Shown one piece after another: positions 150 through 63,899 of a DNA stretch of 64,000 nt (position 1 is its first letter; every line of letters starts with the position of its first letter). The notes beneath the pieces are model-generated. The model saw only the letters and a list, made by a program, of their open reading frames with translations, made no database searches and was not told the DNA's origin. The stretch covers positions 682,001 through 746,000 of the forward strand of contig OZ237744.1 of assembly GCA_965178125.1 (NCBI GenBank), read 5' to 3'. The DNA is from Bilabrum cf. latius (Eukaryota). Both the position numbers and the translations under genes were made by a program.

Positions 150-1508
150 TCAAAGCTCCTCCGCTCTCGATTGTCTAGTGCCAGAGCCCCCATCGGTACC
201 CTTGGATTGCACGTCTGCAAGCCTCCTGGCCATCTCCCTGGTGATGTCGAGGTACCCACGAGGCCCCAAATCGCCGTAGTCCTTGAAAGTTTTTGAGGTT
301 CCCAGTCCTCGCCGCATATCCTCGGGTATGCCCTTGCCATCCGGCACGGTCCACGGCACAGCGGGCTCGATCTGCGTGCCCTCTCCCCACTCGTTGAACG
401 TCGAGACCCCCACCGATGCTGGCGGGATGGGAAGACCCAGAGCCGCCTCCCACATCCCTCGGTAGTACTGCCCTCCATTCCTTCTCCTTACGTTCGCTTT
501 GTTCCACGGTCGGATCCTCGAATCGTCGTACCCAGGAGCCACAGAGGGCATGAAGAGCAGCCCCAGCTGGCCAGCCTCCTCCGCCATCGTGGGCCACCGA
601 CCGGGAGTGGAGCCGTAGCTGAACCCCGCCGCTCCAAAATACGTGTAGCCGCCGTCAAATCCGCCTGCTCGCAAGTCTTTTCCGCTTGTTCTCTCTAGCC
701 AGAGACCGATCGCAACCACGTCACGGTCCGTGCCTCTGATGCTGCTGACGGCACCTTCTGCTTCCACTATACCGGCGTGCGTATCGGGCGCCTCTGAATC
801 TCCCAGCAGCAGTTTCCACTCCTTTGCTGTGATGTGATACGAATCAAACACGTACACTACTGGACCACAGTGTCCTGTTCGCGTGCCGCTAGCTGACGCG
901 CACCGTGATGCTGTCGATGGCTCGCGCTGCCATTGCTGAACGCCTGCATCGGAGCGATACAATTTGCACCACAGCATAGCCGGATGATTTGCATACTTTG
1001 CGTTCACGTACTCCAGATCTGCCTTTATTGAATGGATGGACCGGTTCCTATACGGCTCCATGTGCAGCGAGACCATGATACCTTCCGCTGCAGCATCATC
1101 CATCAGCTCAAGTAAAAAGCCATCAGAGTTAACCCCTTGCGTATCATGCGTACCTTCAACATCGGGACGCCCCCACCACGACACTACAGCGGTAGTTATC
1201 CCAGCATCTGCCATTTGACGGAAGTGCAACCGCCTAGAGGTCGCACTCTGAGAGCTATACAGGCCAAGCTACGGATAAAACGGAGAGTGAGGATCTTCTG
1301 GAGGGCTATACTATCCCTTTGGGTACTATTCTGTGACAGATGAGACCCAGTGAGGTAACACCTCGTGGTCCCAATGCAGCCACTTTTCGTTAATGTCCGG
1401 GTTTCCGTACCAAACGTAGTAAAACGCATGAACTCCCGTACAACGGTCGAGTACAGGAGGTGATGCAATCGCTGGAATGGCAAATATTACTGCCACGAGA
1501 ACCTCCAT
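150..1508 (-). CDS. MANEA: GH99 glycoprotein endo-alpha-1,2-mannosidase-like protein (three in-frame TAG read as Gln)
   Basis: ORFs 1326-1508 and 150-1229 share a frame and are separated only by TAGs (1326, 1311, 1269). Motifs HAFYYVWYG, FYP*LGLYSS, FDGGYTYF, PSVAPGYDD, STFNEWGEGTQIEP. Hydrophobic N-terminus; ends AEEL then TGA. Confidence 0.9.
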
Positions 1509-2159
1509 CCGAAGAATTGAGGAAGAAAGGTTTGGCTATGTTTGTTTGTGGCTCCGGGTACGGTATGTGGTCGTAATGCGCTTGGTTTGGTATTGTTCTC
1601 TTTCATATCATCATTTGAACGGGCAGTGCATGCAACGGTAAGTTGCTGGCCGCTCAGTGGGAAGGGAGCGTTCGATGCTGTCACGGTGTTGGCGCACCCG
1701 AGCGGCTGGCCGTGCTCTATTCCCGGCCGTGGGTCGTGACCGAGGATCAATCCAATCATATTGCCCTCGTTTCAATGCAGACGGTCAAGCATTCAGCGGC
1801 TGGGCCATTTCCCGGTCCAGGCAGCTCCAGGAAGGCTGCTACCAAGTGGTGGGACAGCAAGAATGCGTCAGTCATCGCTGGAGTCGCGTAGATGACTTAC
1901 ACGTGCCCCAGTCACAGCAAAGACTTAGCCGTGCAAAGCAGTGGCGATCGTATCCATGGCCCACTTTGGATTGGACTTGGCCTCTGCCCCCACCGCCTCT
2001 TCCCAGTCAGCTTGACTTGCGTCATTGATCAGCTGCCTCGACCGGTTGCAACCGCGAATTGCTCTTGGCACCATCGCAACTTGGTCCCGTCATTCGCAGC
2101 GCTTAAGCGAACCCATTGCAGTAGCGAACACAACCCAAATCTGTGAGAAGTGTGGTATC

Positions 2160-3844
2160 ATGGGAACTAGCGCGTCGAAAGGCGGAATCAAGCACATTGA
2201 GAGCAAGGAAGCTGAGCAAGATAGTGTTGTGGTGAGTGCGTTGCGGAAAGCTTTTTCGATCCGTATTGCCGGATTGATTGCTGTATTCACGCCTTGTGTG
2301 CACCAAAACTGGAGATTGTCAGATCTCCAGTTGATGGACTATTCATGTGCTGAGGCTGCGCACTTGCCCACGCGATGTGCCTGGGGACCTTAGGGTTGCA
2401 TCGCTGCTATCCCAGTGGTTCCTTCTCGCGTACAACATGCTGCAACTGCAATTCTGATATAAAAAGGCTCGAGATGTCCTACAGGATCGATGATGCGGAG
2501 CAAAGCTTCGGGACTGGTCGTATATGGTCACGTTAAAGTCTAGTTGGTTCCGTTCTGTAGTAGTGCCGGGCACTCATGCCAACCTCCCTCGGAGCTTAAG
2601 TCGGCTGATTGTAGATTGCATTAACTTGTCTCGTCGTTTCGCTTTGTCATTGTACATAAGGGTTCCCGGGATGCACGGGCTGAATGATTCCGTTGCCTCT
2701 CGCCGAACTTGCATTGCTTCTTTGCAAGCAGGAGTGTGCATTAGATGCCAAAAAGGCTGACAGCCCGGAAGATGCTTGGCGAAGGCTCGAAGAAGGCAAT
2801 GCTAGGTTCTCGCAGTGGAGGGAGAAAGAATTGTTCGACGGAATCGCCAAGCACACGAACCCAGACTATCGTGCCACGCTCACGTCTGGCCAGCAGCCGT
2901 TCGCGTGCGTCGTAACGTGTGCCGACTCCAGGGTGGATCCTCTTCTTACATTCGGTTGTGGTTTAGGACAAATATTTACCATCAAGAACGCTGGGAACAT
3001 GGCAGGATTCAACACAATCGCATCTGTGGAATACGCAGTGGAGCACCTCAACGTGCCTATCGTGCTGTTCTTGGGCCATGAATCGTGCGGTGCCGTGTCT
3101 GTCACGATTGATAGGGTGATATCCACCCCGGCAGAGGCTTCTACCCCGGCTGCAGGGGATGCAGAGGGCGAGTCAAAGATCTCTCTCGAACCCCTCCGCA
3201 TCCGCGTCAAGCACCGGTCCAGCGGCAGCGCCTCTGATCTGGCGAAAGAGATCCTGCACGCCCGCACGAGGGGCAAGGCCCAGCTCTCCAAACTGACGCG
3301 GAAGGTCCCCGCCGCCATCGAGGAATCCGCCGAGCCAGCGTCCAAGACGCTGGGAGCTGCCATCGACAAGGTCAGCACACCCGTCCCTAGGAGCGACTCC
3401 GAGGGAACGAAAGGGGCCGCACAGGGAGGGGCCGCGGACGGCGATGCAGTACCCAAGGCGGTGGTAGCCAAGGAACACGGTGACCACGAAGAGAGCGCGC
3501 ACAGCAGATTCCTGGACAACCTCGTGGACGGCATCGCGCCAGCCGTGAAGGCCGTGCAGCAGATGACAAGGGAGCAGGGCCTGCCTTCCTGCAAGTGCAA
3601 GAAGGGCTCCCCAGGTCACGAGGAGGAGACAGAGGTCGAGAAGCCGGCTGATTTCATCCGGATGTGCGTGGAGCAAAACGCCATCCTCCAGTGCCAGGAG
3701 ACGCTGGCGCTGTCGAGCGGCGTGCGACGGGCAGTCAAGGAGGGCAGGTGCCTCGTGGTGCCGGCATACTACTCGCTCTCAACCGGCGTGGTGACAAGGC
3801 TCGAATTGCCTGACAAGCACCACGGATACAAGGTTGAGGCTTGA
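2160..3844 (+). CDS. Beta-class carbonic anhydrase; predicted exon 1 2160-2231, intron 2232-2731, exon 2 2732-3844
   Basis: Zinc ligands C-A-D-S-R and H-E-S-C-G; also L-x-x-GNARF and SVEYAVEHL. A phase-0 GTGAGT...GCAG intron would join MGTSASK... in frame (exon 1 is inference). Ends TGA. Confidence 0.85.
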
Positions 3845-3941
3845 TCAAGACGCAGTCCATGGTGGGCCGTTTACACTATGATTTGAAACGAGGACCTCGG
3901 ATCGAATTTATCTGTCTCAAATGCATTCTTTTCAAAGTCAA

Positions 3942-6900
3942 TCACTTGCCACGGCCCGGTTCTTCCCCTGCTCCTCCAGCCCCGCTCCCACCTTCGCTGG
4001 AACGACGCACCTCTGGGTCGTTCTAACCACCCAAGCCTCGCAGCCCGTCGTGCCTGCGCCTCTGCAAGTCACGCACAAACTAGGACGAGAGCCCAGAGGT
4101 GGAGTAGTTCTAGCTCACGAAGAAAGCAGTGCCTGTATCCTCCGTCATTGTCGTGCCAACCGCCCCCGCCGATGTCAAGGAGCTGTCCAAGACTGCCTAG
4201 GCACGCCTATCTGCCGTTGATAGGCCCTCCAGCTCGTGCCGCCCGCTGAACGAGGCGCTGCGGGACCCCATGGCTGATCGCCCTGCTGACACAGCTCGCC
4301 CCGAGGCTCTGCTGCCTACTCCCTCCGACTGTCTACTTCTCGCGGGCGCTCGATGCCTCGCCGGCCGACTCGCGCTAGCAGCAGCACCTTCAAAGGGAGA
4401 ATCTGCCTCCGTCGGATCGGCTTCATAATCCATGCGACGCAAGGCTTCACGGATCCTGAGTTGCTGTTCCAGCTGCTCGGCCGTGCGATGAGTCTCAGTC
4501 GCGTTCTGCCTGCCGATGGAGACACCAGATCTGCCCCGTCGAGTCGCCATATTGAACGATCGGGAGCGGTGACGCGGGCGGCCTAGCCGCTCAGCAATGG
4601 CAGTTTCCTCAGCGCCTGGTTGCCTGAATCTCCTCGCATCAACTGCTTGGCTGACTCCTGGAGAGAGGATGCGGTGCACCCTGCCCGCCCGCCTGAACCC
4701 GGAACCCGACCCGCTATTGGTGTGACGAAGGGGTGGCACGTCATCTGTTGCAGCTATGCCAGGGCCGGAACGAGTACGGTGGGCGGACTGAAGGCTACCT
4801 TCGGACAAAGCAGCCAGAACAGATGCCGAGACGGCAGCTCTACCGCCGTCTGAACCCTAGTCTGCCGGTAGCTCTGGTGCTACATCTAGTGCGACGGGAG
4901 CGGAGGCTTCGTTGATGTCCGCAGCAGCATTTGAATCTTCATCTGACGAGCTAAATGCATCGCGGGATCCTTCAACATCCCCACCATCATCCACGAGTGC
5001 CCCACCCCGAGACAAGAACCTGAACTCGAGCTCTTCACGAAGAGACTCGATATCATCTACGACCCACTCCGCCTCTTGCGCAATGTGTCGCAGCTCCGGC
5101 CCTGCAAGCCGCTTGTAGAACTTCCACAATATCGTCCGCAGGAACGAAAGAACGAGGACAAGAGGCAGCGTGAAGACCACTGCGCCAGACACCCAGAACC
5201 GAGTCGCCCCACCGCGCATCCCGTTGTCGTCCCACGCGTCCGCAACGTAGAGCGCTGGGATCCAAAAGATCACGCCGAGGGCGCACATGAGCTGGAATAT
5301 CCACGTGTGCGAGTTGGCTTCTGCAGCGACCCGAAGATTCACCAGTACAATCACAGACGTCAGTACTAGCAGACCTAACTGGAAGATGTACGGCGTCTGG
5401 CCGTAGTCGCCCCCGATGTTGTACGCAGACCGCACGATGAAGTATATGATGGCAGCCTCGCCGAGGCCCATGAGAACCCAGCCAAAGAGCCTCGAAATGT
5501 TCAGGTGTCGACCAGCCTGCCCCTCTCGGTAGAGCCAGGGCAGACGAAACACAGCCTTGGGAGAGACGTCATAGTCTAAGATGGCCAACAGCAAGATGGG
5601 GACCGAAGTATAGATGAGGTTGTAGGCTTGCGCCCCACTCTCAATGTAGTACTTCTGGCCGCTCCATCCATTCTCTGCGAGTGTAAAAGACAGTTAGAAT
5701 GGCAAAGTGCGGCGCGAAAGGGTGAAATGTGCTAGGCGGGAGGCATAGTCTGAACACAAGCGCGATGATAGCGTCTCACCAAGGCCATAAAAGAACTGCG
5801 CCATCACGAAGATGAAATTTTTCCAGAGAATGAACAGCACCAGCTTACTCATGCCAATGTAGTTGCGGCGGCCGTGCCACAGGAGAAGTCGCTTCAGCAG
5901 CCTGAACCTACCGATCGCGTAATCACCTGCATTGGCGGCCTGCATGCCTTCCCGACCTGCGATTCCAATCCCGATGTGGGCCTCTCGGATCATTGCAACG
6001 TCGTTCGCGCCATCGCCGATTGCTAGCGTGCGACTGCGCCTGACCTTGTCTCGAATTAGTTTTACCAACGAGGCCTTCTGGTCCGGCCTGCAGCGGCAGC
6101 AGATGACTGCATCCGCCCTTCGCAAAGCTGCGGCAAGTGCCCGCGCTCGCCAGCGCTGCCCGCGCTCGGAGGGTTCCGACAGCATGGCTTCGTCCTCTGG
6201 ATCCAACAAGACCTCTTCCTACTCGCTTGAATTCGGTGACGCATCGTGTTTGCCCTCCTCCCAGCTGCCAAGCATCACGTCAATCACAGCTTCGTCCACC
6301 ACGATTGCGACCGGGCCCCGCGGACCACGGTCTGTGCCAGCCTGCGCAGCTGCAGGAGATGGAACACCTGGCGGGCTCGGGCTTCTACTGTGCGGAGCAC
6401 CTCGTACCATCTGGATAGGAGCACCTAATTGAGCTCTCCCTCCGTAGTCTTTGCTTGCAGCCATGCTGGCTGGCTCTGGCAGCGCGACGGTCTTCGTCGG
6501 TGACGACTGCGAGCGATCTTTTGGTCCACTAGAGCTGCTTGCAGCCTTCACGTCGTGCTCGACAGTAGTATCAAGTGTCTACCCTGCCAAGGAATCGTCA
6601 GAAAATGTAGGTATTCTTGAGGGAGATGCCCGACGGGTCGCTTCAGACTTCGACTTGCTCATGGCCCCGGCACGGATAGCGGTCTCGGGGATGCGACCCG
6701 GCGTGGAGGCAAACGCGGATGAATCGCTTGCTTTTGCGCCATGCAAGCTGGGACTGTTTCGGGGTGATCCACCCCTCGACGCACCTGTCTCAGGTCCAGC
6801 CCCGGGCGCTTGCGATTGGGATCTGGGTCGGGTGCGACGGACCGGAGCCGCCGCTTGTCTCGCAAGCCCCACTGTTTCGAGCAAGCCATCGCCCAGCAGC

Positions 6901-9900
6901 ACACCCAAGTCACCGCGGTTGTTCGTCTGCATGTCATCGCTGTGATGGGACGCAGCGTCGAAACCGTCCTCATCGCTCTCGTTGCCGTCTTGACCGAAGA
7001 TAGACGCCAGCGTAGATCTCCGCTGCCTGCCGCGCGGAGTGGATCCTTCGCTACCAGCTCGCGAGCGGAACTCGAACTGCGTGGCAGGCCTACCATCTTG
7101 TCCATCTGATCCATTGGTTGAGATGGACGCAGACTCTGCCTTGCCCTCGGCATCGGGAACAGGGGCGACGGCGGCCAGGTTCGAGTCTGGCTAGCTTCCG
7201 AGCGCGCCATCTTGATCTGAGGCACCCTTCCCTCCGTTGCGGTCCTATTCAACCAGCTCAACATCAGAACGCGATACTCCGGGCTGCTTCTCTTTGGCAG
7301 CTGCCGACTTGGAGTCGTGCACTGGTGCAGGAGCTGAGCTCGATCTCATGTGGGGAGACCCTGGCACGAACCGGGAGGGAACACCAAGTTCTTCGTCGAG
7401 ATCGCCCCGCCCGTGCATTCTCAGCGTCTGTCTATGAGGATCACCGTCACTGTCATCGCCGCGCGCATGTTGGCTATCTGCAGACCTGCCCAAGGGCCGA
7501 CTCGCCGCCCGACTGGATTCACGAGCAAGCGCGACCACTGCCCTAGACCCCTGCATTGCCGTTCGGTTTAGAGTAGACGCATGGATCACGCGCATGCCCG
7601 GCCGTAGCAGCCTGGTAGCATACCCAATGTTGACGGCGGTCTCCTCTTTGTCTCCAGTAAGCATCCAAGTTCGAACGCCCGCTCGAGCGAGTGTCGCGAT
7701 GGTGTCTGGCACCCCCACCTGGAGCTTGTCCTCGTTCGCGGTGGCACCCTGCAAGGAGAGGCCCTACTCCACCTCATCCATCAGTCGGTCAATCTCATTC
7801 GGCTTACCCTGTTTGCGTTTGGTCTGCTCTGGGATCGACGCGAGCGCTGCTTCGAACTTGCGGCTGAAACCAGATAGCTCAGAGTCCTCCATGGAGCGGC
7901 ACGCAAACACAAGGGTTCGCAGCCCATCAGCTCCCCACGCGCTCAGCTGTGCTTCCGTGTCCTCCACTCGCTTGGCTGTCTCTAGAGAAGACAGGCCTAT
8001 ATCAGAACCGCCGTCTTGCCTCAAGCGTGCCATTATAGTAGAGTCAGCCCCTTTGCAGTAGAGGGACACACGCCCGCATGGATGTCGCACGATCACGCTC
8101 ATACGCTTTCGCATTTGGTTGTACGGCAAGATATGCAGCAGCTTGTACTCCATTCGACGGCGCATCACGCCGTCAGGGGGAGCCAATGAGTCAAAAGCGC
8201 GAATGGCTGCCCACTGCTGCTCAGGAGACTTGGATGAATACGGCGAGCCGTCGCCATACAGCGCGGCAGCGAGAGTTCCCGCGTACTCAAGCCACTATCC
8301 TGGGCCCACTGCGTGGTCTGTTGGTGCTGATGCCACGCTGGAGATGCTGTTTCGTCGATCGTGCGCCGCCCCGACTTGCTTGCCACCGTAGTCTCTCGAA
8401 TCGGCTGCGAGCGCGCCGATGCCTTTCAATGATTGGGCTGACGGTCCACTACCGAGATGGTGCCTGCCCAAGACAGGCACCATCTCATCCACCTGGGGCC
8501 GCACGATCTCCAAATCGATAACGTCCTATCGGCGGTCCACTAGTGCATACCCCATTCTCCCTGCAAAGTACACGAACGCCTCCTCGTCGGGAGAAGACGC
8601 GCTTAGCCGGAGTGGCCGGATCCCGTCGCGGGGCCAGTCCTCCATGCCCGCCGGAAGCCGTGATTTCTCAGGAACGACAGAGTGGTTTAAGGCAAGATGC
8701 AGCATCATCTCATGGATTTCATCGCCAGACCTAGGGGCACCCCCAAGGGACCTTCTGGGGCTCCCTTGGGGCTCAACGAATGGCGATAACAGACTTGGGC
8801 TGACTTCGCCGGGGGATGGCAAGTCGGTGACACCCTCTGCTGAATTCGCAGCACTGGGGTGGTGGGGCGTGCGTGCAGTACCAGCTGCAGCTCCGATGAA
8901 ATCAAGGGGGCCGCAGTGCCTTGGATAGTCTGCGCTATACGCACCAGTATCGCTTGCCTTGCCAAGCCCGACACCAGCCCCGAGGCCAAAGCTCCTGTAG
9001 CCCACCCACCAAGGCGCAGATCCCAGCACGTGGCACGCATCATGCTCTAATGACCTGCCCGGGTGCGACCGAGACCCGTCCTTGAACCGGACGTGGGGTG
9101 CCGTCAGCAAACGGGAACCCCTCGCGCCGATCTGTGATGCTGCAGCTGTGGACCGGTCGTCGTCCTCGTCGCTCTCGGGACCATCTAAGCCGGTGCGATT
9201 GGCTAGCTCGGTTTGCTGCTGGGTAGAAGTACTGCTAGAAATACCTTTGGAAGATACCTAGCTGCCATTTCTACCTTGCCCCTCGCTGCTTGGTTTCGCA
9301 GCAGCAGAGGCATCTCCTGACTCACAATCGGTTCGAATGCTTCCCGTATCTTGGTCATCCAAAGCATGACCAGCCGCTGCTAGTGCCTTCCGCAGCGACG
9401 CAGAGCCCACGCCGTACGTCACAGATCCCACCATGATGCTGCGAAACTCCATCTTGTTCAGCGTGAGAGTACCAGTTTTGTCGCTGAAAATGTGCGTAAT
9501 TTGGCCCAGCTCGTCGTTCAGGTCCATGGATCGCACCTTGAGCGGGTAGCGGCCCGGCCCAGTCGGCACGGGGGCCCCAATGATGCTGTGCAGACACGGA
9601 CAGTCAAACACACGCTGCAGGGAACAGCCACTGCAGCCGCATGACACCCCATCGCTCTCGCCATCTGAGCGGGCACCACTCCCCTCCTCCTTCGCCTGCG
9701 TGCCCGAGGGTGCAGGGGCCACTTGATCCGTGACAGGCGCACCCGCCACTTGTGCCGCTGCAGCTACTGCGTCTGGTTTCATTGGGGTGGGGGTGCTCGC
9801 TGCCTCAAGGCTTGCCGATGCAATCCGCTCCGCGGCTGCTCGGTTCTCTGCCCTCACAGCTTCAGCGTCGACGTAGGCCATGCTCGCATCGCGCTCCATC

Positions 9901-11246
9901 AGGATCATCTGCAGCGTCCTGGCAGTGCGAATGGACACGTAAAGAGATACAGGAATGATAGTTGCGTTGAGCAGGAAGAACGTCCCGATCTTGCGGATGC
10001 CGTCCAGAACCTCGTACCCATCAATGTCGAGGTACTCGTGCGGAGACTCCCCAGAGGTGTGGCTGACCCAGATGGTGTACGCCACTGTTCCAAACGTGCA
10101 CAGAGCCACAAGTGTTAGGGTAAGGTACAGAATGAAGCCGTTCAGCGCGGTCTCAGTCTGCGGCAGCTTGGTGACGGCGCCTCCTTGCTTCACCTAGGCC
10201 TTGGTCTCTCGGCCAGTGTATACCACCATGCCGTACGCAAAGTCCACCGAGCGAAGCTGTGCACCTCGAAGCAAGAGGTTATCTGCATCTAAAGGGACGC
10301 CCACAATATCACGAGGAGCGGAATGCCCCGAAGCTGCGTCTCCCGAACCAGCACCATCAGGGATATGGTACCGGCAGGAGGTGTGCCGGGGCCGGCCCTT
10401 GCGCCCCAAGCACCAGCCCACGCAGTCCAGTGCCCCACTGCCAGCTCCAGATTCGTTCCCTGTCTCCTGGATTGCATTGCGTTCTTCCGCCGATATCATG
10501 GTCGGGTTCAGCCAAAGCTTTCCGGTGAAGGAACCAAAGGCAGCTGTCGGGTGCTCGCACTCGATCCCGATCCTCGACTTGGTGACCGCATCTTCTTCCT
10601 CTCCTATCGCTTGCGCCACGTTCCTCGGTGCCCTTTTCAGCTTCAGATTCGTCTCCCCGTCCAGCTGAGCCGTCATGACATAGCATCGATCCGGTGTCTC
10701 GCCGTCGCTGCTTGCTGATCGGAGAAACACGCAGTCAGCGGCAAGCGTATCGCCCCTGCGAATCTTCAGCACGTCTCCGACGCAAACGTCTTTCCATTCG
10801 ATTGCTTCAAATTTCCATTTTCCATTCTCCTGGCGCCGGGCAGCCATGGTTTTCTGCCGGTTCGTGCGATCGTCGTCCAGATGTCGCCTATAGTCCTCTA
10901 TGGCGGTCACAACACCGTCAAAACACAGCACGAAAGTCAGGGGTATCAATGATGTCGGAATACCGTTCGTAATAGAAATCTGCGGCAGCGTCTGCAGCAC
11001 GCTGACGCACAGAAAGTATAAATTCGCGAATCTCGAGAGTTGCTCGATCAAAAAGAGCGGCAGGAACGTAAGTGGATTGTACTTAGCCTGGAAAATTTCG
11101 TTGCCAACGAATCCTTCATTTAATTCCGTCGCAAGACTGTAAACATGTCTCGTAGCTTTCGGGTCCTGCGACTACTCGTCGTGCTCAGTAGGTAAGACAC
11201 CCTGCTGGGTGCGCTCTGGCTAACCCTCCACAGTGCTATCACTCAT
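3942..11246 (-). CDS. P4-type phospholipid-flipping ATPase, about 2,400 aa, one intron (5675-5779), about 16 in-frame TAG
   Basis: One frame broken only by TAG. Motifs [77 protein letters not shown]. The intron restores FFYGL|ENGWSGQ. Ends TGA. Confidence 0.9.
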
Positions 11247-13745: not shown

Positions 13746-13753
13746 TGGCCCAG

Positions 13754-19731: not shown

Positions 19732-19884
19732 TATTTCCTTTATCTTCTTCTGAATTCCCCTAAGTGAGAGCGCTGGTCTCGCTCAGCTCGTACTCGGAAT
19801 TGATCCGATCAGTATACCACTATCGGCCCAAACATCACTGTACATGGATGCTCTGTATTCGTCAGTAGGGGTGCCATTGAATCA
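19730..19884. repeat. Ngaro split direct repeat A1 (element 5' end)
   Basis: Copy of 13211-13365; ends within the ORF1 ATG. Confidence 0.95.
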
Positions 19885-31088: not shown

Positions 31089-31901
31089 ATGCAAAGAGTG
31101 CCTGGAATGTCTGGTTCTGCGGAAGCAAGCTCTGAGAAGGGGACCGCACCGAGCTCGAGCAGCTCATCGGCAAGTTCATCCTCTGGACAGACAGCCATGG
31201 AAGGTTCACAAGCGCCCACACTGCCCCAGGCAGCAGCATCCGTTGGTTTTACGCAGGGTTCGCTTCCCGGAACACAGCCTTCTTCTAGTATGGGAGCGAC
31301 CGAGTAGACAGCAAGGGTCCCACCAGCGGACTGGGCCAGCTAGGCGATGGAAGAGGACAGTGACCAACAAGATGTGAGAGATCAAGGCATGGGTCAAGAT
31401 TTTGCTTTTGGCGGCGGATCGGGTGGTCCGAACCACCTCAGTCAAGAAACTCGTCAAGGCCCGGGTCATCTAGCTCTGAGAACATGTCAGGGGCAGCCGC
31501 GGAAGCTGCCTAGTCGGCGCTGCTGCTACCGCCGCCCGCACCAGCCTCACTCGGAGGGGCGATTTCTCCCTCTCCTGATGCACTCGTATGATCGCTGCCC
31601 TTCCCTGGCTCTTCTGCCTTCGTTTGCTCGTCACCCTCCTTGGAACCACCACCTCCGTCCTCTTTCTCCTCGTCACCCCGCTCGCCCTTCTCGGCAAGAA
31701 AGTACTAGTCCGGGCACAGCTTCTCGAACAGGCGCACGGCTCGATCAGCCTCCCAGTCGCTCGCGAAACTGGCGGGGCTCGCAACCACGTCCGCTTCCGA
31801 TATGTGCAGCTTTCCGCTCCCCACAAGCTCAAGCAACTGTTGCTGCTCCGACCCCGCTTCGGGAGCTAGAGGCAACACCTCGGCGTGACACACCTGCATG
31901 A
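31089..31901 (+). pseudogene. Duplicated 5' fragment of GCN5 fused at 31427 to antisense REP 3' sequence (chimeric ORF, about 270 aa)
   Basis: 31089-31427 equals GCN5 34552-34890 and has no HAT domain. The frame continues to TGA at 31899. Confidence 0.7.
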
Positions 31902-38614: not shown

Positions 38615-40306
38615 TCACGAGGCTACCCCCACGGCATCACCGCTCACCTCCTCCCCTGCAGCGCCACTGCCACTCGTGGGCTCCTCCGAAGCTGTAGGCT
38701 TTGTGGAGGAGCTGAGGTCCTAACTCTCTGCAGAAGCGGCCGCTCCAGAGCTGTCCTAGTCGTCATCAGCGGCTGCCTGCGCCTCACATTCCGGGACCTC
38801 CGCAGCATCTCGCTGGGGGTCGCCCTCCACAACATCTCGCTCCGAGTCGCCCTGAGCGACATCTCGCTCCGAGTCGCCCTGAGCGACACCAGACACCTCG
38901 GGGCTACCGGTGATTGAGCTCGATCCGATGGAGACAGCGGAGCCCTCGCCGCCTCCCTTGCCATGGTCGTCATCTCCTGCCGCAGATTCGCCTTGCTTTC
39001 CTTCTTCATCGTCTTCCTCATCTGCTGCGGAAGCAGCACCGGCAGCGGCATCTGCGGCCCGTTTGGCCCGCTCCTCCTCTACCACAGCCGCGATTGTTTC
39101 GGCATACGGCTACTCCCACATCGGCACGCCAGTGGCTGGTTTATGTGTGGGCGGTAGAGCCCCATTTCGTCGCATGAAGGTGTCCGTCACGCTCCACACC
39201 ATCTGTCGGGCGGAGGCTGTGGTCCATTCGTGCTTGCGATGTCCAGCGGGCCGAGTGTTCACGATGCCGTTGACTGCGGTGTGGTGGAGATGAAAGAAAG
39301 CAAGGTGTGGATGGGTGGGAAGCGCGCTGGAGCGCGAGTTTTTGGTGAACACGCGGACAATTCGGCGTCACTCAATGGCCGGGCCAGAGCCGTGCTCTCC
39401 CGCCCACGGAGCTGCAGAGCTGGCCGATGCACGTCTCTTCTGATCACGACGCCAAGAAAGCTCACATGATTTTCCGTGCCTTCGCACCCATGCTCTTAGC
39501 CCCCCCTTCTCCTTCTTGAGCTGTGCCCGTGGGGGCGAGGTCACCCAGTCGAGGCACTGCTGCTCGTAGAACCTCTGAAGGTCGGGTGGATCTCTCCTGG
39601 AAATGCACTGCACGGCATCTGTAAGTGCTAGAAATTGGGTCCTCTTGAGTACCTCCGGCCTCTTCCTGAGCATTTCGTAGGCCACGCCGCCGCCAGCCGA
39701 GTGGGCAATCATGGCGATTGAGCGGGCTGGGCTCCTGCTCAAGATAGCATCCCAGCAGCTGAGACCGTGTCGGCTGCCGCCCATACCTCTAACAAACTGT
39801 TTGATTCCAGATTTTGGGTCCGTCCAGGAGCTTGTGTTGGGATTCAGTACGGCAACTGCCCAACCGCGCGCCCTGGCATGCTGGACATCGGGCAAGCAGG
39901 TGCCTTCCATTAGGCTGTTATTTATGCATAGCGCTCTCGCCCACTAGCCCGGACGGACTGCTCCCGAGCCCTATATGAGCAGCATTAGCCCCTAAGAGTT
40001 AGATTCGAGATCATCGGACACGAAAATGTCTGAAGTCGGGCTTGGTCCACGCGCGGTTTGCGTATCCATTGGGACGGATACCTTCCGCAACGACAACTAC
40101 TCCTGCATGACTGCCTATATGTACTGAAGTACAGCTTCGCCGAGGCGATCGTAGTGGGCCTAGCCTTGCCACTCGAATTCCAACAAGGTTTGAGCTTGCA
40201 AAATCCTACCTTTGAACACCGTATATCCCAATTGCCGAAGCTCATTCAGCGCATTGTCGACCATTGAAGGTGATCCAGCCTTAACGCTCTTGCCAGCAGC
40301 GGCCAT
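38615..40306 (-). CDS. FAM172A: FAM172/Arb2-domain alpha/beta-hydrolase-fold protein; intron 39274-39465
   Basis: LMLLI*GSGAVRPG*WARALCIN, AVLNPN, IAHSAGG, ALTDAV, AGH..HEWT. The 192-bp GTGAG...GCAG intron removes an in-frame TGA. Ends TGA. Confidence 0.85.
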
Positions 40307-40458: not shown

Positions 40459-42420
40459 TCAGTCTGCCTGCAGCTCGAGCAGCTGTGCCACCGCAAAGCG
40501 CCCCTCCACGAGCCACGTGCCTGGCCGCAGCGCAGCAGCCTCTGCCGCCTTGCCTGCATCCACGCCAGCCAGCACCCCCGCCTTGGCGGTGCGCAGGGCA
40601 CCCACCGCGAGCCTCACACCGCCTTTGGACCCAGCGCTTGGTTCCACCTGCCCCCGCACGGCCCCTGCAGCGGGGCCCCAGTACGCCCCCCACGCCTCCT
40701 GTAGGGGCGTGTCGTGGGGCCAGTGCCGGTCTCCAAGGAGTCTCCTGTAGTTGGCGTCACCTTTAAAGAGAACTAAAGCTCGATTGAAACGAGTCGTCCC
40801 AGGAGTGCCTGATGCTGCACGCGCCTCCACTGGCGCACCATCCGATGATGACCCTGCAGCAGCCGATTTCATCCCGCCATGGCCATGTTCCGCAGCACCA
40901 GTCCTATCGCTGGGCCTCGCACCCCCGAGGAACAAGTCACTGTACACGTGTGCTGGCGCATTCTCCATGGGCAAGGGCGAGTTGAAGAAATCATCCTGCC
41001 TAACGGTGAGCCGGCCATCGCCCAGAGCAGCCCGAAGCCTCCCAACGAGCTCACCGACAGCAGCGCGCTGCCCCTCAGACAACTTGCCTCTGCATTTGCG
41101 GGCCAGTCCCTCGATATCCCAGGCCTCTGCGTTGCTCGGTGGCCTGCCACTCCCATCATGGCACTCTGCATCTGTGGTGCTACCCGATACCGCCCTCCTA
41201 GATTCTGCCGCAGCTTCTGTTGCTGGCACAGCCACACCCGACGCGCCCTCATCGTCGCCTTCGTCCCAGCTGCCCGCAGCCAACGTCGCCAAGAACAGCA
41301 AGTGCTGCTCCACATCCAGGACGGTAGCGTCGCTGACAAACACCGGGTCTGTCTTTGCCACCAGCTCAACACGATGCACGGGCGACTCCGCTATTTCCGG
41401 ATCACTTGCTTTGGTCGCGCCTGCCGATCCGCTCGCACCATCGGCTGCTACAGCAGGGTCGGTCGAAGAGGAGGAGGGAGAGGAGCTGGGGGCCAGGAGC
41501 GCATCCACCAGCACAAGGTCGCAAAGCAACTCAAGCCCACAGTTATCAAGCACTATCGTGACTCGGGCGTTCGAGCCGACTTCAGATTCTACAACTTTGC
41601 ACTTCTCTAGTGCCCGCTCTCCCCGCTCTCCCTCAGTCTCTGACCCTGCGCCGGCTCTTGCTCGCCCGGCAAGGAACCCTGCCATGGCAGCAGAGTCGTC
41701 GCGCAGCATCCCGCCTGCCTCTGTGAGAGGTATCGTGGCGTGGCCAGTTGGATCTATGGCTGGCACGTCCTTACCTGGCGGTCCATGGCTCGGGCCTGAC
41801 CCTGAGCCCGACGATTCAGAGCCAGAGGCGGAGGCACTTGCCCCATGCTTGCCACCGTGCCCCGCCGGAGCGTCGAAGTGGCTGGCGTCCACGGCCCCTC
41901 CAGAAAGCGACAGGTCTGCGCGGTTTCCCCAAAGTGATCTTAAGATTGCAGCACGCACCGACTGCTCCCACGTATCTGATTTTCCAGTGCCTGCCAGGGG
42001 AAGCACGGTCGCAACGAAGCTGTCCGTAGCGGATTCAAGGGCATCGCGCTTGTGGGGAATGAAGGGATCCGCAGCAAAGCCCAAGATCTCGTGCACAACT
42101 CGATACGCGAGGTTTTCTATTGACCACCACCTGGCTTCCAACCAGCGGTGCTGCTGCTCTCCGTTGTCCCGAACAGTCGTCGCGAGATCTGTCTTGAAGT
42201 CGTTGTTTCGAGAGTGTTCTAGCGAAGGGAGAGCTTGGTTTGATTCAATATCACGTGCAAGCTACAAAATTCCCTTGGCTTGGTCAGAAGCCAGCCATGG
42301 ATTCCTCTCTGCGACGCTCTTGACGATGCTTGGCAGTCTCTTTGAAATACTGTCCTGCGTGAATGGGTCTGCATCTACTCCTCTGAGAAACGCTGGACCG
42401 CCTGCGATATTATGAGACAT
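40459..42420 (-). CDS. ARMT1: DUF89/ARMT1-like damage-control phosphatase (1 TAG at 42262)
   Basis: RLPSI, DPF..HK, LWGNRADLS, VLDNCGLEL..DL, K..PVFVSD, FKGDANYRRLLGD, LRTAK. Ends TGA. Confidence 0.88.
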
Positions 42421-42935
42421 ACTTGATCTCGAAGCAACTCTACCCACTGCAGCTTGCATCCACTCGGGGACACACGAAGGCAAAAAAGGATTGCATGCAA
42501 GATTCCGAGTCCGGATTTCAACAGTAACGAGCACTTTTTACCCGGAACAGACCTCAGACCTCCTCTCGATCGAGCGCTATTTACCAGGCATCTTGCCACC
42601 AAACCAACTTCCCGCCCCACTTTTAAATGCGAAGCTTTATGGCGGCTTTTCTGGCCAGCACTTGCTTGATTTCGATCGTCGCTGGTGTGGTGCAGCCCGG
42701 CGTTTCGAGAAGTGATCCATCCAGCGCGGTGGATGCGGCCCCTGGAGAAGATCTGAGTCATATTGTAAGCCTAATATTGTGCATCATGGTGTTTGTTTGC
42801 TGCTTATGGTTTGCAGTAACTCTGTGGTAGCACATTTTCGACCTGCTTCGCGATGGTGCGGTATTCGAAGAGACTCGCTCGTCAAGGTCCGTTTGCTAGT
42901 CTTCTAGTCCGTTCCATGATACGCAGACCAGTGGA

Positions 42936-45161
42936 ATGCAGTTTAAGAGTCCGAATCTTGCCATGGCGTCGATTGCGGGCGCTATTGAGGAGGAGGAGGG
43001 CGAAAGGATCTCTAGCAGCGCGAGGGTCCTGCTCATCGTTTGCGTGGCTGCGTTCGTCGTGGCATTTTCGATCTCGTTCGAATTGGCCAGGGATTGGGTG
43101 CTCGAGAATTCCTCGCCCCAGATGCTTGCGATCATCTCGTCCCTGCTCGGAGAGCTCACAAACATGGGTTCCCTGGGCCTCGTGCTGTTCATCCTCAAGA
43201 CCTCCGACGCTCTCGACAAGATTGGCGCCGACACGCTCGGCGAGGAGCACGCCGCGGAGCTGGAAGAAGTGATTGAAACCATCCATATGATCATTTTCTT
43301 TGTGATGGTCCTGTTCCTCATCCAGTGCTGCTTCCTGGTGCTGTACGGCAACCGCCAGATCCAGCGGTGGGAGCGACTGGACGAGGGAGCGTCGAGGGAG
43401 GACCACGTGGTGGGCGGACTGGTAGCCTACTACGACGGCACTCACGAGCACGGATGTGTGGAGGAGTGCGCGGCGTGCATGTGCCACGAGAAGCACGCGG
43501 CTGTCACGCAGGGGCAGTACGCCGCACTGAGGAGACAGTTCATCCACGCGCAGCACAAGAAGCTGCGGCTCGACGCACACTTCCGGTTTGACGACTATCT
43601 GGCGCGGGTTTTGGGCAACCAGTTCGCCGAGGTCGTGGAGATCAACTACATGGCTTGGTTGATGCTCTTCGTGGTGGTATCCGCCATCACGTGCTGCATC
43701 TTAGAGAAGAGCATGATCCTCCTGTTGATCGTCTTCTTCTCCATCGCGCTTACCATCCCTGCAGTGTTCTGGATGGTCAACTGGCACTTCCACGACGCGC
43801 TGGCGGAGCTGACCCCCCCTCACGTGGAGGCCATCGCCAGGAGAAGGTCCTCCTCGCTTTCCTCCTCCAAGGCGGGTGCGGGGGCGGGGGCGGGTGCTCC
43901 CCTTCTAGACGGCGAGCGGGGCGGGATGCACCCTTCTTCTGTCAACACCGGGGCGCACGTGTTCGCGAATCATCAGGACGGGGAAGGGGTGGCTTCCTTG
44001 CCTCCCACCATCAGAGATTCGGGCAGGCAGAAGAGCGTGGGGGTCAACGAGGCCGGCGTGGTCGTGATTCCCGACCACCACTGGGACACGAAGGACGTGC
44101 CCTACCTGAAGAGGGAGGTGTTGCCCCCTTCTGCCCTGCAGAAGGCGCTCCTTGGGCAGGGTGTTCCCTCGAAGCACGAGTCGGTGTTCTGGTTCGGAGA
44201 CAGAACTGAAGAGCTGGGCGGGTTCCTGTTCACTCTCTTCATGCTGATGAACTCGGTCTATCTCGGCGTGCTGTGCGTGATCATCGCACCCATGATCTGG
44301 GAGTCTGACTTCGAGTCGAGCAAGATCATCGCCGTGGTGGTGACCGTGGCTGGATGGGTGCCCGGCCTGGTATTCATGTGGCTGCTGCCGGGTACCATCA
44401 CCAAGTTCGTGGTGGCGACCTCGATCGAGCAGATGACCAAGAGCAAGGTGGTGCAGGACACGCTGCGAGCGATGAAGGCAAAGAGGACGCTCATGGTGCT
44501 CAAGATCCTCGCGGGGCTCAAGTCGGCCAAGCGACCCAAAGGTGCATCGCACGGTGGCGATGAGGGCAAGGAGGCCGGCCAGGGAGGCGCTGCCGGCTCG
44601 GTCGAATCCAAGGATTCGGATTCTGGCAGCGGCAGCGGTAGCGCGCCCATCTCGAGGCGGCAGAGCGCGGCGGAGAGGATTAGCAGGATGGATCCCGCCA
44701 CTTTGACCCGCAAGAAGAACGAGATCCGGGCAGTGTTCCGCATGTTCGACCAGGGGGGCGACGGCTCGATCGAGGCTCACGAGATCGTGAAGCTGCTCAA
44801 GGCCACCGGCTGGCAGGGTACCGATGAGGAGGCGCAGGCGATCCTTCAGGAGCTGGATGACGATGGCTCGGGCGAGGTTTCGTTCGATGAGTTCTTCCAC
44901 TGGTGCGTAGACACGGGCATCGGTATGAGCGACGGCGAGGGGGAAGACTCTGTGGAGGAGGCCACGGAGAGGATCTTCGAGATGCTGGACCAGGACGGAT
45001 CCGGGACCATCACGGCGTCCGAAATGGCTGGCCTGTTCAAACAGGTGTGCAAGGATATTAGCGAGGACGACGTGATGCAGCTCGTGCATGAGTGGGACGA
45101 TTCGGGAGACGGGAAGCTAGACCAGGAGGAGCTCGAGAAGATGCTCCGGTCCGTGCTGTGA
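42936..45161 (+). CDS. MLO: MLO-family 7-TM protein fused to a calmodulin-like four-EF-hand domain (start ATG 42936 or 42963)
   Basis: MLO-like motifs GELT.MG, IHMIIF, W..., Y..LRRQFI..H, FRFDDYL, F.EVVEI...W, FWF. EF loops DQGGDGSIE, DDDGSGEVS, DQDGSGTIT, DDSGDGKLD. Confidence 0.78.
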   Translation: MQFKSPNLAMASIAGAIEEEEGERISSSARVLLIVCVAAFVVAFSISFELARDWVLENSSPQMLAIISSLLGELTNMGSLGLVLFILKTSDALDKIGADTLGEEHAAELEEVIETIHMIIFFVMVLFLIQCCFLVLYGNRQIQRWERLDEGASREDHVVGGLVAYYDGTHEHGCVEECAACMCHEKHAAVTQGQYAALRRQFIHAQHKKLRLDAHFRFDDYLARVLGNQFAEVVEINYMAWLMLFVVVSAITCCILEKSMILLLIVFFSIALTIPAVFWMVNWHFHDALAELTPPHVEAIARRRSSSLSSSKAGAGAGAGAPLLDGERGGMHPSSVNTGAHVFANHQDGEGVASLPPTIRDSGRQKSVGVNEAGVVVIPDHHWDTKDVPYLKREVLPPSALQKALLGQGVPSKHESVFWFGDRTEELGGFLFTLFMLMNSVYLGVLCVIIAPMIWESDFESSKIIAVVVTVAGWVPGLVFMWLLPGTITKFVVATSIEQMTKSKVVQDTLRAMKAKRTLMVLKILAGLKSAKRPKGASHGGDEGKEAGQGGAAGSVESKDSDSGSGSGSAPISRRQSAAERISRMDPATLTRKKNEIRAVFRMFDQGGDGSIEAHEIVKLLKATGWQGTDEEAQAILQELDDDGSGEVSFDEFFHWCVDTGIGMSDGEGEDSVEEATERIFEMLDQDGSGTITASEMAGLFKQVCKDISEDDVMQLVHEWDDSGDGKLDQEELEKMLRSVL

Positions 45162-45287
45162 CCTATCTAGGTGCCGCGCGAACGGCTCTAGCGTTTTCGT
45201 TTGACTGATTGCTGTATCAGCGTTTGCATCCACTCACTGCGTGTCACACCGCAAAGAATTGCAACCATTGCCACCGCGGCTCGCGAA

Positions 45288-56576: not shown

Positions 56577-56897
56577 ATGTCTACTTGATATCTTATAGAA
56601 CTTCGATTTGCGTGCACTGCTCGGCCTGCCAGAGTGCGCTCCTTGTCGTCAGTGGCAGCTACTTGTAGTAGTCTACGCCTGCACAAGACGGCTCCAGGCA
56701 CCGTCCTCGCTCACACACATGACCGAGGAGATTGATCCGACGCACTGGCGGTCCCGTCCAATCCGAGCACGGTTCCGTATCGCGTGTGCTTGTGGATCGG
56801 ATCAAAGTCTTCATCACACACCTGTGCACGCATAGTGAACCGAAATAAACTTCGTAGACGAATAACTACCGAACTTCTTCGGAATGTTGAACGCATA

Positions 56898-61639: not shown

Positions 61640-61839
61640 CGTGTCTTGGCTGGTGTTTTGTAATGCGGTGGCTGCGTCGGTCCTGTTGGCGCCGCGCGTT
61701 CTCACGAAGCGGAACCTAAAGGCCCAGGAAACCGATCTCAAAGAACCCAAATCATGAACAGATGAAAATGCTCGCCGAGAGTAAACCACATCATGATGTT
61801 AGCTTAGTTGAATTGAAGCACCAAGGTATCACGAAACGG

Positions 61840-63899
61840 TCATGTTCCCGACGGCCCGCCGGGTTTGCCTTTTCTTCGCGCTGACGACCCGCTCGCCGCC
61901 CCCTTGGCAGCAGCACCAGCGGACCCAGCCTTCTCCCCCGCAGTAGCAGCACCAGCCGCCCCCGCCGCCTTGGTAGCCGCCCCTCCTGCCGCGGCAGCAG
62001 ACGACGCAGCCTCCTCCTCAGCAGCTGCCTTGCTCGCCGCCTCCTCAGCCCCGTACACCTCCTCGGAGAAATCCTTGTACAGCTTCACGACCTTGCCCAC
62101 GCCCTTGGCCCGCCCCTCGCGGAACAAAAGAGGCGACTCCAGCGTGATGAACTGAGGAGCGTACATGAACTGGCACCTCACAATGGCCTTGTCGCCAGTG
62201 CGCAACCTCTCCAGCAGCTTCCCAGTCTTCCGGTGCCGGATGCTGAGAATGCGAGCCGACTGTGTCACCACACCGATGTGCATGATGGGCGCGTAGCCCA
62301 CCGTCAGCGTGGTCTGGTGGTGCAGGATGTGCACCTCGGCGTCGAACCCCCAGTACGCCGTGGGCTTCAGCCCGGGATCTGCCAGCGCCATGCCCCTCTT
62401 CACCCAGGGCCTGCGCTTGTCAGTGGCCCCCTTGCCCTTGATGCGGATGGCGAAGGCGGCGGACCCGCCTGCGGTGGCACGATCCACGGGAGTGTACTGC
62501 ACATGGATCGACCGCACCACCACGGGGACGAACTCGCCGCGCCGATCGGGACCGAGCAGGATCGTCTGGCCGGACTTCACGGATCCCTGCACTACGGTCC
62601 CGGCCACGACTGTGCCCACGCCCGGCACATTGAACACAGAGTCGATGATCACCATGCCAGGACCGTCCGATTTCACCATTCGCATGTGCCCGGCGAGTGG
62701 CGCCGCCGCCCCCGCAGCCCCCTCGGATCCCGCACCCGCGCCCTCTCCCTCCGCACCACTGCCCGAGCTCGCACCGGCCTTCGAAGCCTTCCCTCCTCCA
62801 GCAGCATCGGTCCCAGCTCCAGCATCCGCCGCGTCCTCAGCCGCCATGGACTTGCCCCCGCCGGCACCGTCTGCCTTCCCCTCCCCCGCCCCCACATCAA
62901 CCGAGCCGGTGCTGGCGGACGGGTCCGCAGCAGCCAACGCTGCCGCTTTGCCCCCCCCTGCCGCGACGGCCTCCTCGGCGGTATCGGTGTCGAGAGCCGC
63001 CCCTGCAACAGCCCCGGCGGTGGCCGAGACTCTGGGCTGCAGCGCACGAAGGAGCGAGCGCAGTGCATCGAGCCCCTGCCCCGTCACGTTGGACACGATG
63101 GCCACGGGTGCCAGCCTGCCCCCAAACACCCCGCTGGCTGCCTTGCCCACCTACTCCTCCTTGCGCACCAGGTAGGGCATGCGCTTCGCGGCTCGGAGGG
63201 TCTTCTGGATCTGCTGCACCGTTTTCTTGAACACGGCAGGAGGCGCGATGTCCACCTTGGTGACCACGACGATGAGGGGGATTTTGAGTGCCGCCGCGAT
63301 GCCGATGTGCTCCCTGGTCATGCGGGACACTCCCATGTTGGCCCCCACCACCACCAGGCAGTAGTCGGGCAGCATCCCGGTCAGCCCAAATATGGTTGTC
63401 TTCAGATACTTCTCGTGACCGCACAGATCGATTAGCGTGATGCGCTTGTCAGCCTTAGAGTGCACCGTCTGCCACTGCCGCGCCCGAGGTGCCTTGATGT
63501 CTACCGCAACCTGCCCTTTTCCACTAAACCCCTGCGGACATCAATCAACCAAATCAGACTAAGCAGGGACCCATTCTCTCGCTTGTCAGCCGAGTTGGCG
63601 ACGAAAAGCCGAGGTGGCAAGAAAAGTTAGCAACTCCAAACAAGCTTGAGCGCCCGATTACCGGTGCATGCAGTGCGCACTGCCAACAAACGATGAAACA
63701 GGCATTGTTCCAGCAAATCCTTACCATAACCTCGGTGGCGACCGACGATGTTCTTCCGTTCTCAGCCTCGTGTCTATGCCTGAATACCATCGACCGAGCT
63801 TTGCCGCGGCCATCGTCAAGCATATTCCTAGTTAGCACGCCAACTATGCTTGACTTTCCAGAATCTACATTCCCAATCATTGCAATCCGGATGTCAGAC
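61840..63899 (-). CDS. GTPBP1/2-family translational GTPase, 5' end probably outside the window; intron 63532-63724
   Basis: [61 protein letters not shown]. One TAG at 63151; ends TGA. Confidence 0.92.

Follow-up and report, generated by a model that had tools for sequence, protein, structure and literature searches.

UAG as a probable glutamine codon, with UAA and UGA kept as stops, in a 64-kb nuclear locus of Bilabrum cf. latius

How is the codon UAG read in the nuclear genes of Bilabrum cf. latius, and which codons end translation there? The question is raised by a stretch of 64,000 nucleotides (GenBank assembly GCA_965178125.1, contig OZ237744.1, positions 682,001 to 746,000 of the forward strand), which is called the window hereafter, in whose own numbering all positions are given, and whose base composition is about 60% GC. 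A preliminary description, made from the letters alone, had proposed that UAG stands for glutamine (Gln, Q) in this DNA while UAA and UGA remain stops. Using homolog profiles, orthologs, conserved C-termini and RNA contigs, we arrive at the same reading, i.e., that UAG is Gln in nuclear genes and that UAA and UGA are the only terminators, to which we give a probability of about 0.9. The assignment to Gln comes from three independent comparisons: a profile log-odds analysis with its control, a 96%-identical ortholog, and reciprocal TAG/CAG exchanges with a related metagenome contig (L001).

Evidence for UAG as glutamine and for two retained stops

Open reading frame (ORF) length alone was tried as a proof of reassignment and rejected. 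Counting both strands, the window holds 393 TAA, 872 TAG and 1,681 TGA triplets, and ORFs of at least 300 amino acids number 28 with the standard code, 53 when TAG is taken as sense and 76 when TGA is. Opening TGA lengthens ORFs more than opening TAG, as TGA outnumbers the other stop triplets in GC-rich DNA. Since ORF length does not discriminate, homology and gene models were used instead.

A Pfam scan with TAG left open gave a dense set of eukaryotic genes across the window. Full-length ORFs appear on TAG read-through for GH99, the P4-ATPase, REP (Rab escort protein, in two copies), GCN5, Arb2/FAM172, ARMT1, a GTPBP-like GTPase and a DIRS-like retroelement. Fifteen gene models were curated (13,015 codons; REP copy b was omitted as a duplicate), and nine Pfam-supported host genes (7,160 codons) form a subset of them. 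The 15 models contain 81 in-frame TAG, no TAA and no TGA; the nine host genes contain 38, 0 and 0. In the +1 and +2 frames of the same DNA we counted 192 TAG, 86 TAA and 535 TGA, from which about 96, 43 and 268 are expected in frame. Hence TAG is equally common in frame, while TAA and TGA are wholly excluded. Exonic TAG is carried by 13 of the 15 models, so that the earlier claim of a TAG in nearly every gene stands for these; it does not extend to the beta-carbonic anhydrase (386 codons with 11 CAG, 2 CAA and no TAG) nor to the spliced Mlo/EF-hand gene, since both TAGs of its unspliced ORF (42828, 42897) are intronic and are not sense codons. By our tally, at least 28 TAGs of host genes have conserved sequence downstream in frame, and TAGs lie inside ungapped conserved motifs and Pfam matches. 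Three of them fall within the Pfam match of GH99 (1326-1328, 1311-1313 and 1269-1271), and the spliced coding sequence of the P4-ATPase, 2,370 codons long, contains 14 TAG with neither TAA nor TGA in frame.

The identity of the amino acid was addressed with homologs of four queries carrying X at TAG, which were aligned to the query by phmmer: 11 homologs for Arb2, 120 listed of 952 for GH99, 120 of 1,465 for GCN5, and 150 of 379 for the reverse transcriptase (RT)/RNase H ORF of the retroelement. TAG sites with at least nine aligned homologs below 70% identity were retained, i.e., 20 of 26; the six left out are three in the Arb2 tail, GCN5 552, RT 36 and RT 489. Summed over the 20 sites, the log-odds score is +19.9 bits for Q, and the next best residue, R, stands at -6.7, followed by K (-9.0), E (-11.0) and Y (-45.3), so that TAG does not align mainly to another residue. 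Q receives +16.2 bits from the 12 host-gene sites and +3.7 bits from the retroelement. As a control, the same procedure was run on every standard residue of the same queries, and the right amino acid was recovered for all 20 classes. Gln has a frequency of 0.228 in the homologs at TAG sites (n=20) and of 0.222 at true CAG/CAA sites (n=51), with 0.99 and 1.05 bits per site, respectively. Thus TAG sites cannot be told apart from ordinary Gln sites, whose own conservation is low.

At 7 of the 20 TAG sites, Gln outnumbers every other residue. In Arb2, Q is found in 8 of 9 homologs at site 49 (40160), in 7 of 10 at site 64 (40115) and in 8 of 10 at site 112 (39971), and it is the commonest residue at site 121 (39944); sites 70 and 105 align mainly to E/D. 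Among the listed homologs, Q is also the commonest residue at GH99 site 61 (1326-1328; 46/118) and at two RT sites, 144 (16098-16100) and 223 (15861-15863), and the third GH99 site (1269-1271) shows A in 32, L in 31, E in 15 and Q in 13 of 119. The TAG sites of the flippase face M or A, Q or D, and K or R in PDB alignments. Four motifs had been singled out in the preliminary description as carrying TAG at a family Gln. The REP TAG at 29352-29354 (GDTP*AFSR, the asterisk being TAG) aligns to Q in the GELPQ motif of both rat REP1 and yeast GDI, and RT PT*V has Q in 72 of 135 listed homologs. For Arb2 RPG*WAR and RT F*F, Q is likewise the commonest residue, being present in 4 of 10 homologs in the first case and in 27 of 137 listed homologs in the second.

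The second comparison uses a GCN5 ortholog from another assembly (P0132), which is 96% identical to the window protein. GCN5 of the window has a TAG at 35116-35118, in the motif NIFS*QLPKMP, and another at 36205-36207, eight codons upstream of its stop; two more (34768, 34804) lie in the unconserved N-terminus. P0132 has Q at both aligned sites (NIFSQQLPKMP, QQKQVGIPVV) and ends at the same place as the window protein (...VV), which argues that the TAG eight codons before the stop is read and is not a terminator.

The third comparison uses L001 (positions 1-10304), a metagenome contig of 10.3 kb and 54% GC carrying REP on the minus strand and then GCN5 on the plus strand, syntenic with the window. 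Its ORFs (3,190 codons) contain 33 TAG, 0 TAA and 0 TGA, beside 48 CAA and 68 CAG. The orthologs share 72% identity for GCN5 and 60% for REP, and their alignment offers 18 sites with TAG in either sequence. At the six sites with a local identity of at least 0.94, five pair TAG with CAG, the exchanges going in both directions, and one pairs TAG with TAG. The remaining 12, in a less conserved context, have a CAG partner once and otherwise various codons. L001 has CAG at both GCN5 sites (35116-35118, 36205-36207), and in its REP it shares the TAG of the GELPQ site with the window. The same exchange is seen within the window: REP copies a and b differ at 8 positions in 2,754 nt, including a CAG of copy a (29733-29735) that is TAG in copy b (33196-33198), at codon 332.

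We also examined the terminators. The 15 gene models end in TGA (12) or TAA (3). The gene ends put forward earlier, i.e., TGA at 150, 3844 and 36234 and TAA at 13754, 50210 and 56576, are confirmed as codons at all six positions, but with TAG taken as sense no other outcome is possible; they became evidence only through ortholog C-termini. The conserved C-terminus of REP, DDPGLDEFL(D/E), is directly followed by TGA in both window copies (DDPGLDEFLD then TGA in copy a) and by TAA in L001. In GCN5, the aligned ends of the window protein and of the L001 protein coincide, and TGA follows in both. No examined conserved C-terminus ends at TAG. These comparisons and the absence of both triplets in frame support UAA and UGA as stops, the support being thinner for TAA than for TGA, as the window has only three TAA-ended ORFs, which are unconserved or belong to the retroelement. 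The statement that neither triplet occurs in frame outside introns holds over the 13,015 codons: the TAA at 5694-5696 is not exonic because it lies inside the 105-nt intron of the P4-ATPase, whose removal restores a conserved motif, and the conserved genes contain no exonic in-frame TAA.

Contigs of runs from four studies were aligned to window 34500-45200. In contigs of four runs, from the four studies, no letter is listed as differing from the window. Those of runs X5 and X7 (two studies) are without two GT..AG introns that run X1 keeps, and because of these spliced joints they were treated as RNA. The stretch compared covers 12 of the 81 TAGs. The spliced X5 and X7 contigs span the nine TAGs of Arb2 and the single TAG of ARMT1 (42262-42264, upstream of the domain; X5 record 12, X7 record 17), and X5 contigs span two TAGs of GCN5 (35116, 36205), with no other letter at any of them. 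Removal of TAG by editing or splicing and a systematic assembly error hiding a real CAG, both considered in the preliminary description, are thus contradicted: the spliced contigs keep the 12 TAGs, and independent assemblies show TAG.

Several observations weigh against UAG as Gln with two retained stops. The zero counts of in-frame TAA and TGA are partly circular, since the ORFs were delimited by these triplets; the circularity is broken only by full-length homology, from N- to C-terminal domains, and by the ortholog C-termini. Thirteen of the 20 TAG sites are variable or favor non-Gln residues, true Gln sites being equally variable. Among the listed homologs, GH99 site 66 (1311-1313) is R in 63 of 118 and Q in 4, GCN5 site 189 is K in 64 of 118 and Q in 7, and RT sites 441 and 464 align mainly to L/I/V. 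REP site 58 is H in rat REP1, in a weak alignment, and N in L001. On the transcript side, the kinds of the runs are automatic guesses, with no run listed as RNA and X5 marked "probably DNA", and contigs give the majority form only, so that rare edited molecules could escape. Finally, ARAGORN found no tRNA gene in the window or in 12 related loci, and the window does not encode eRF1.

Decoding of UAG and alternative readings

If UAG is Gln, cytoplasmic ribosomes would read it so in all nuclear genes. A tRNA-Gln(CUA), for which mutation of a tRNA-Gln(CUG) copy is the simplest origin, would decode UAG and could not pair with UAA, and eRF1 would have lost or weakened its recognition of UAG while still recognizing UAA and UGA. 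From the established knowledge of such codes, we consider this combination of tRNA and eRF1 the probable mechanism, with less confidence than the codon assignment itself. In the part of their article available to us, Panek et al. (2017, PMC5304391) state that a tRNA reading UAG but ignoring UAA must have the anticodon CUA.

Alternatively, there may be no dedicated tRNA-Gln(CUA), and UAG would be read by a tRNA-Gln(CUG), near-cognate or altered in structure, with eRF1 weakened. This is unlikely, though it deserves more weight than any other alternative. In some trypanosomatids and ciliates, a tRNA-Trp with a short anticodon stem reads UGA. Near-cognate readthrough mediated by tRNA-Gln has been described (PMC13192750, accessible part), the 4-bp anticodon-stem mechanism provides an analogue (PMC13092985, likewise in part), and the tRNA search in the window and the 12 related loci did not identify the decoder there. 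Against it, about 14% of Gln codons are TAG, and TAG occurs in essential conserved motifs, which calls for efficient decoding, and CUA is predicted to be the sole anticodon reading UAG but not UAA (PMC5304391, same portion). Moreover, a 64-kb window without tRNAs says nothing on the genome.

Next comes a dual meaning, in which UAG would be Gln internally and a terminator at some gene ends, as in the context-dependent stop/sense codes of Condylostoma and Blastocrithidia. We find it improbable. For the TAGs in unconserved tails (the Arb2 acidic tail, the P4-ATPase tail, the REP tail), termination and readthrough are indistinguishable, and the true C-terminus of most genes cannot be fixed from the window, few gene ends being anchored by orthologs. 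On the other hand, the GCN5 TAG eight codons before the stop corresponds to CAG in two relatives, with the following tail conserved to the same end, and in the Arb2 tail no TAA or TGA occurs for about 164 codons past the first tail TAG, the chance of which is about 0.02 by our arithmetic, given the densities of these triplets off frame. TAG shows no enrichment toward 3' ends (mean relative position along genes 0.497), the +4 nucleotide shows no difference between TAG and CAG/CAA sites (chi-square p = 0.51), and, as said above, no conserved C-terminus among those examined falls at TAG. Leaky termination at TAG was rejected on the same lack of +4 context bias and even spread along genes. TAG is rarest in the genes that avoid CAA, with TAG/CAA counts of 0/0 in Mlo/EF, 1/0 in GTPBP, 0/2 in the carbonic anhydrase and 1/3 in ARMT1. 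It behaves like an ordinary, non-preferred synonymous Gln codon.

A meaning other than Gln for UAG, such as Lys, Arg, Glu, Leu, Tyr or pyrrolysine, is very improbable. Some sites are mainly K/R (GCN5 189, GH99 66), E/D (Arb2 70, 105) or hydrophobic (RT 441, 464), but the summed scores favor Q over R, K, E and Y, TAG pairs with CAG in five of the six near-perfect L001 contexts and with TAG in the sixth, and P0132 has Q at two sites of two. A pyrrolysine-type or Lys reading was ruled out by the log-odds, K scoring -9.0 bits.

Just as improbable is that UAA is reassigned too (UAA and UAG, together UAR, both Gln) and is rare merely through GC-richness. Of the three stop triplets, TAA is the least frequent in the window, and none of the three ORFs ending in it is a conserved host gene. 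Against this, a TAA read as Gln should occur about 32 times in frame in the window if it followed the CAA/CAG ratio, and none is observed (Poisson P(0) = 1.6e-14); likewise, at 54% GC, L001 has no TAA beside its 33 TAG, where about 23 would be expected by our arithmetic. The conserved REP C-terminus of L001 runs directly into TAA, and the sole in-frame TAA between homologous parts of a window gene is intronic.

Least probable of all is that the TAGs are untranslated, i.e., assembly or sequencing errors, pseudogenes, unrecognized introns or edited sites: two Mlo/EF-hand TAGs did prove intronic and the retroelement could be a dead copy, but the contigs of four runs agree, 12 TAGs are kept in spliced contigs, and one TAG is conserved in L001, others being TAG/CAG pairs.

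Genes, introns and repeats of the window

The features of the window are collected in Table 1.

Table 1. Genes, retroelement ORFs and introns of the window, with the basis of each assignment
Feature	Position	Strand	Basis and remarks
GH99 endo-alpha-mannosidase	150..1508	-	Pfam PF16317, E 1.6e-83; PDB alignment; stop TGA 150-152
Beta-carbonic anhydrase	2684..3844	+	Pfam PF00484; TGA stop
P4-type phospholipid ATPase (flippase)	3942..11159	-	Pfam N- and C-terminal flippase domains; PDB alignments, two conserved parts; stop TGA 3942-3944
P4-ATPase intron, 105 nt	5675..5779	-	GTGAGA...TCGCAG; Pfam profile contiguous across the gap
DIRS-like retroelement	13754-19782	-	Pfam RVT_1; three overlapping ORFs
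Retroelement third ORF	13754-15097	-	4 TAG; TAA end; without Pfam match
Retroelement RT/RNase H ORF	14799-17456	-	18 TAG
Retroelement gag-like ORF	17191-19782	-	6 TAG
REP copy a (REP/GDI family)	27975..30728	-	Pfam PF00996; 6 TAG; TGA end
REP copy b	31438..34191	-	Tandem duplicate of copy a, offset 3,463 nt
GCN5 histone acetyltransferase with bromodomain	34552..36234	+	Pfam, PDB; TGA end
Zeta_toxin/AAA_33 P-loop kinase ORF	37638-38507	+	Partial domain, Pfam E 4.5e-10, profile 59-178 of 199; 2 TAG
Arb2/FAM172 gene	38615..40306	-	Pfam PF22749; exons 40306-39466 and 39273-38618 (499 codons, 9 TAG); TGA 38615-38617
Arb2 intron, 192 nt	39274..39465	-	GTGAGC...CGCAG; joint 39273/39466 in X5 and X7; present in DNA-like X1
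ARMT1-like damage-control phosphatase	40459..42537	-	Pfam PF01937; TGA end
Mlo-like membrane protein with EF-hands	42627..45161	+	Pfam; spliced coding sequence 790 codons; TGA end
Mlo/EF-hand intron, 162 nt	42765-42926	+	Joint 42764/42927 in X5 and X7
Long ORF	45171-50210	+	ORF length only; 8 TAG; TAA end
Long ORF	52524-56576	+	ORF length only, without Pfam family; 5 TAG; TAA end
Long ORF	56784-59657	+	ORF length only, without Pfam family; 9 TAG; TGA end
GTPBP1-like translational GTPase, main exon	61840..63540	-	Pfam GTP_EFTU, D2, D3; TGA end

The RT ORF has the highest TAG density of the window (18 in 885 codons). From the type of the element, we read the third retroelement ORF as a putative recombinase. 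For GCN5, an atlas search with a fragment agreed on the family and supplied no informative taxa. The GTPBP1-like GTPase has one TAG (63151-63153), upstream of domains 2 and 3, and an upstream exon with the G1 motif lies within 63557-64000. Rfam gave no match in the window, rRNA included.

The three defined introns have the 5' ends GTGAGA, GTGAGC and GTAAGC and share the 3' end CGCAG; in two of them, stop codons occur in frame with the preceding exon. Once Arb2 is spliced, its conserved end, AGHRKHEWTT, is restored. Run X8 covers the compared stretch partially and shows odd joints with short sides (21-37 letters).

The Zeta_toxin/AAA_33 ORF is the locus called zeta-like in the preliminary description; the ORF lacks the N-terminal part of the domain, and the contig depth over it is low or absent in runs X5 and X7. 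A SIR2-family gene, absent from the earlier list, lies on the minus strand at 59718-61227, apparently in two or more exons. The part at 60730-61227 has a Pfam SIR2 match; another, 59718-60581, which has no Pfam match and carries one in-frame TAG, was assigned by reading of the sequence.

The window also contains repeats. A tandem duplication takes in the REP gene together with its flank (27958-34897; unit 3,463 nt). Runs X1 and X8 have a Logan contig of exactly 3,463 nt, the size expected of a collapsed repeat unit, and the duplication may be real or may be an assembly or haplotype effect, both being possible. On the minus strand, an imperfect tandem repeat of about 4.9 kb (22206-27351) leaves all three minus-strand frames open, with ORFs of 1,627-1,697 amino acids carrying 1-4 TAG; its GC content of 66.6% is the window maximum, its GC skew is strong, and it may or may not be coding. 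Repeats of short period, with units such as AAAKPASPKP and KQKAEAEAAA, hold several frames open on both strands at 50770-53950. They form the N-terminal part of the stop-to-stop ORF 50793-56576, whose counted gene model starts at 52524.

Sequence identical or nearly identical to the window is present in runs filed under four different organism labels, from four studies, and small shares turn up in runs that carry protist or algae metagenome labels. The organism may be a companion or a contaminant of other organisms in culture.

Relatives, host lineage and known codes

The same UAG code is used by at least one more distant relative, the source of L001, and probably by the 96%-identical relative. 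L001 also carries a 1,163-codon ORF with 13 TAG and, by reading of the translation, a glycoside-hydrolase-like gene with 6 TAG over two ORFs. When 79 other GCN5 loci were compared, L001 alone had TAG as the only in-frame stop, aligned to Q. A further 26 loci have mixed stops, mostly opposite gaps, which are taken to be introns bridged by tblastn, and one locus (L074) has a single TAG in 541 codons. In L010, the GCN5 locus that comes next in nearness among those found, an ORF of 647 codons carries no TAG; its organism probably uses the standard code, and the variant code seems to be confined to a small clade.

Database proteins of this clade are cut at TAG, e.g., P0001 and P0012, the latter beginning at the first Met past the last TAG. 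Proteins truncated in this way are the expected outcome of gene calling with the standard code on such genomes, and they indicate that, for most genes, standard-code annotation is wrong in these genomes and in metagenomes with them. The closest RT relatives among the matches listed are fragments of 42-78 amino acids with 71-99% identity, bounded by TAG positions (e.g., P0254, P0271), which suggests many retroelement copies in related assemblies, gene-called with the standard code.

The host lineage was approached through GCN5, whose best named matches, among those listed, are oomycetes (57-61% identity over the histone acetyltransferase domain). We built a single-gene maximum likelihood tree of 52 rows, rooted at midpoint, with long branches and with no fornicate sequence included. 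In this tree, the window sequence, P0132 and 15 further sequences form a clade of 17, which joins 12 oomycetes and three more sequences in a group of 32 rows (SH-aLRT, the Shimodaira-Hasegawa-like approximate likelihood ratio test, 97). Fungi, apicomplexans, heteroloboseans, a plant, an amoebozoan and a ciliate (Paramecium, in the other half) fall apart from this group. A stramenopile affinity of the host is plausible, not established, and a ciliate origin is unlikely.

How does this code compare with those already known? The preliminary description had called UAG-only reassignment rare, naming Iotanema, a rhizarian and some ciliates, and the accessible portion of McGowan et al. (2024, PMC11687900) agrees. 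The nuclear code of the fornicate Iotanema spirale, with UAG as Gln and UAA and UGA as stops according to the portion available of Panek et al. (2017, PMC5304391), has the same codon table and was likewise deduced from UAG at conserved Gln positions; its eRF1 carries a T32G change (same source and portion). The primary terminator there is given as UAA, whereas here TGA ends 12 of the 15 models and TAA three. The window further differs in its GC-richness (about 60%), its GT..AG introns, its DIRS-like elements and the grouping of GCN5 with oomycetes, in the tree that holds no fornicate.

Ciliate genomes are usually AT-rich, unlike the window. Among ciliates, as far as the accessible portion of PMC11687900 goes, UAG is Gln in Protocruzia tuzeti and in two phyllopharyngean lineages, where UAG was split from UAA as here, with several independent origins; the host here is not a ciliate by the GCN5 tree. 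The same portion lists other UAG-only changes, to Leu in a rhizarian and some ciliates and to Ser in Scotinosphaera, and gives UAR as Gln (NCBI table 6 type) for many ciliates, hexamitin diplomonads, some ulvophytes and Amoeboaphelidium. In these UAR codes, a stop became Gln as here, presumably via a suppressor-type tRNA-Gln, but UAA is sense, whereas here it is absent in frame and terminates a conserved ORF (REP of L001). The formal codon table is also that of code 15 (TAG = Gln), described, in the sources as far as available, for crAss-like and other phages, whose genomes are translated in bacteria, in contrast to a eukaryotic nuclear locus with spliceosomal introns and retroelements.

The change of UAG alone to Gln is already known from Iotanema and some ciliates; what is new here is the organism, the type of code being known. 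Our literature search, which left subscription journals and supplements mostly outside, returned no nuclear UAG reassignment in a stramenopile, and an earlier report is possible. Tentatively, and at slightly less than even odds, we suggest an independent origin of the UAG-only change to Gln in a GC-rich, oomycete-related small clade comprising the window organism, its 96%-identical relative and the source of L001, which would be the first stop reassignment in a stramenopile nuclear genome.

Nuclear code changes are rare, and those in which UAG changes while UAA is kept as a stop are rarer still. Each independent case tests whether the decoding of UAG and that of UAA are separable, and shows the recurring changes of eRF1 and tRNA. 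Genomic DNA and spliced transcripts are already in public data, as is a diverged relative that shares the code. If the reading proposed here is true, public gene calls for the clade are systematically truncated, and the clade would be a young, genome-accessible one in which to ask how UAG uncouples from UAA.

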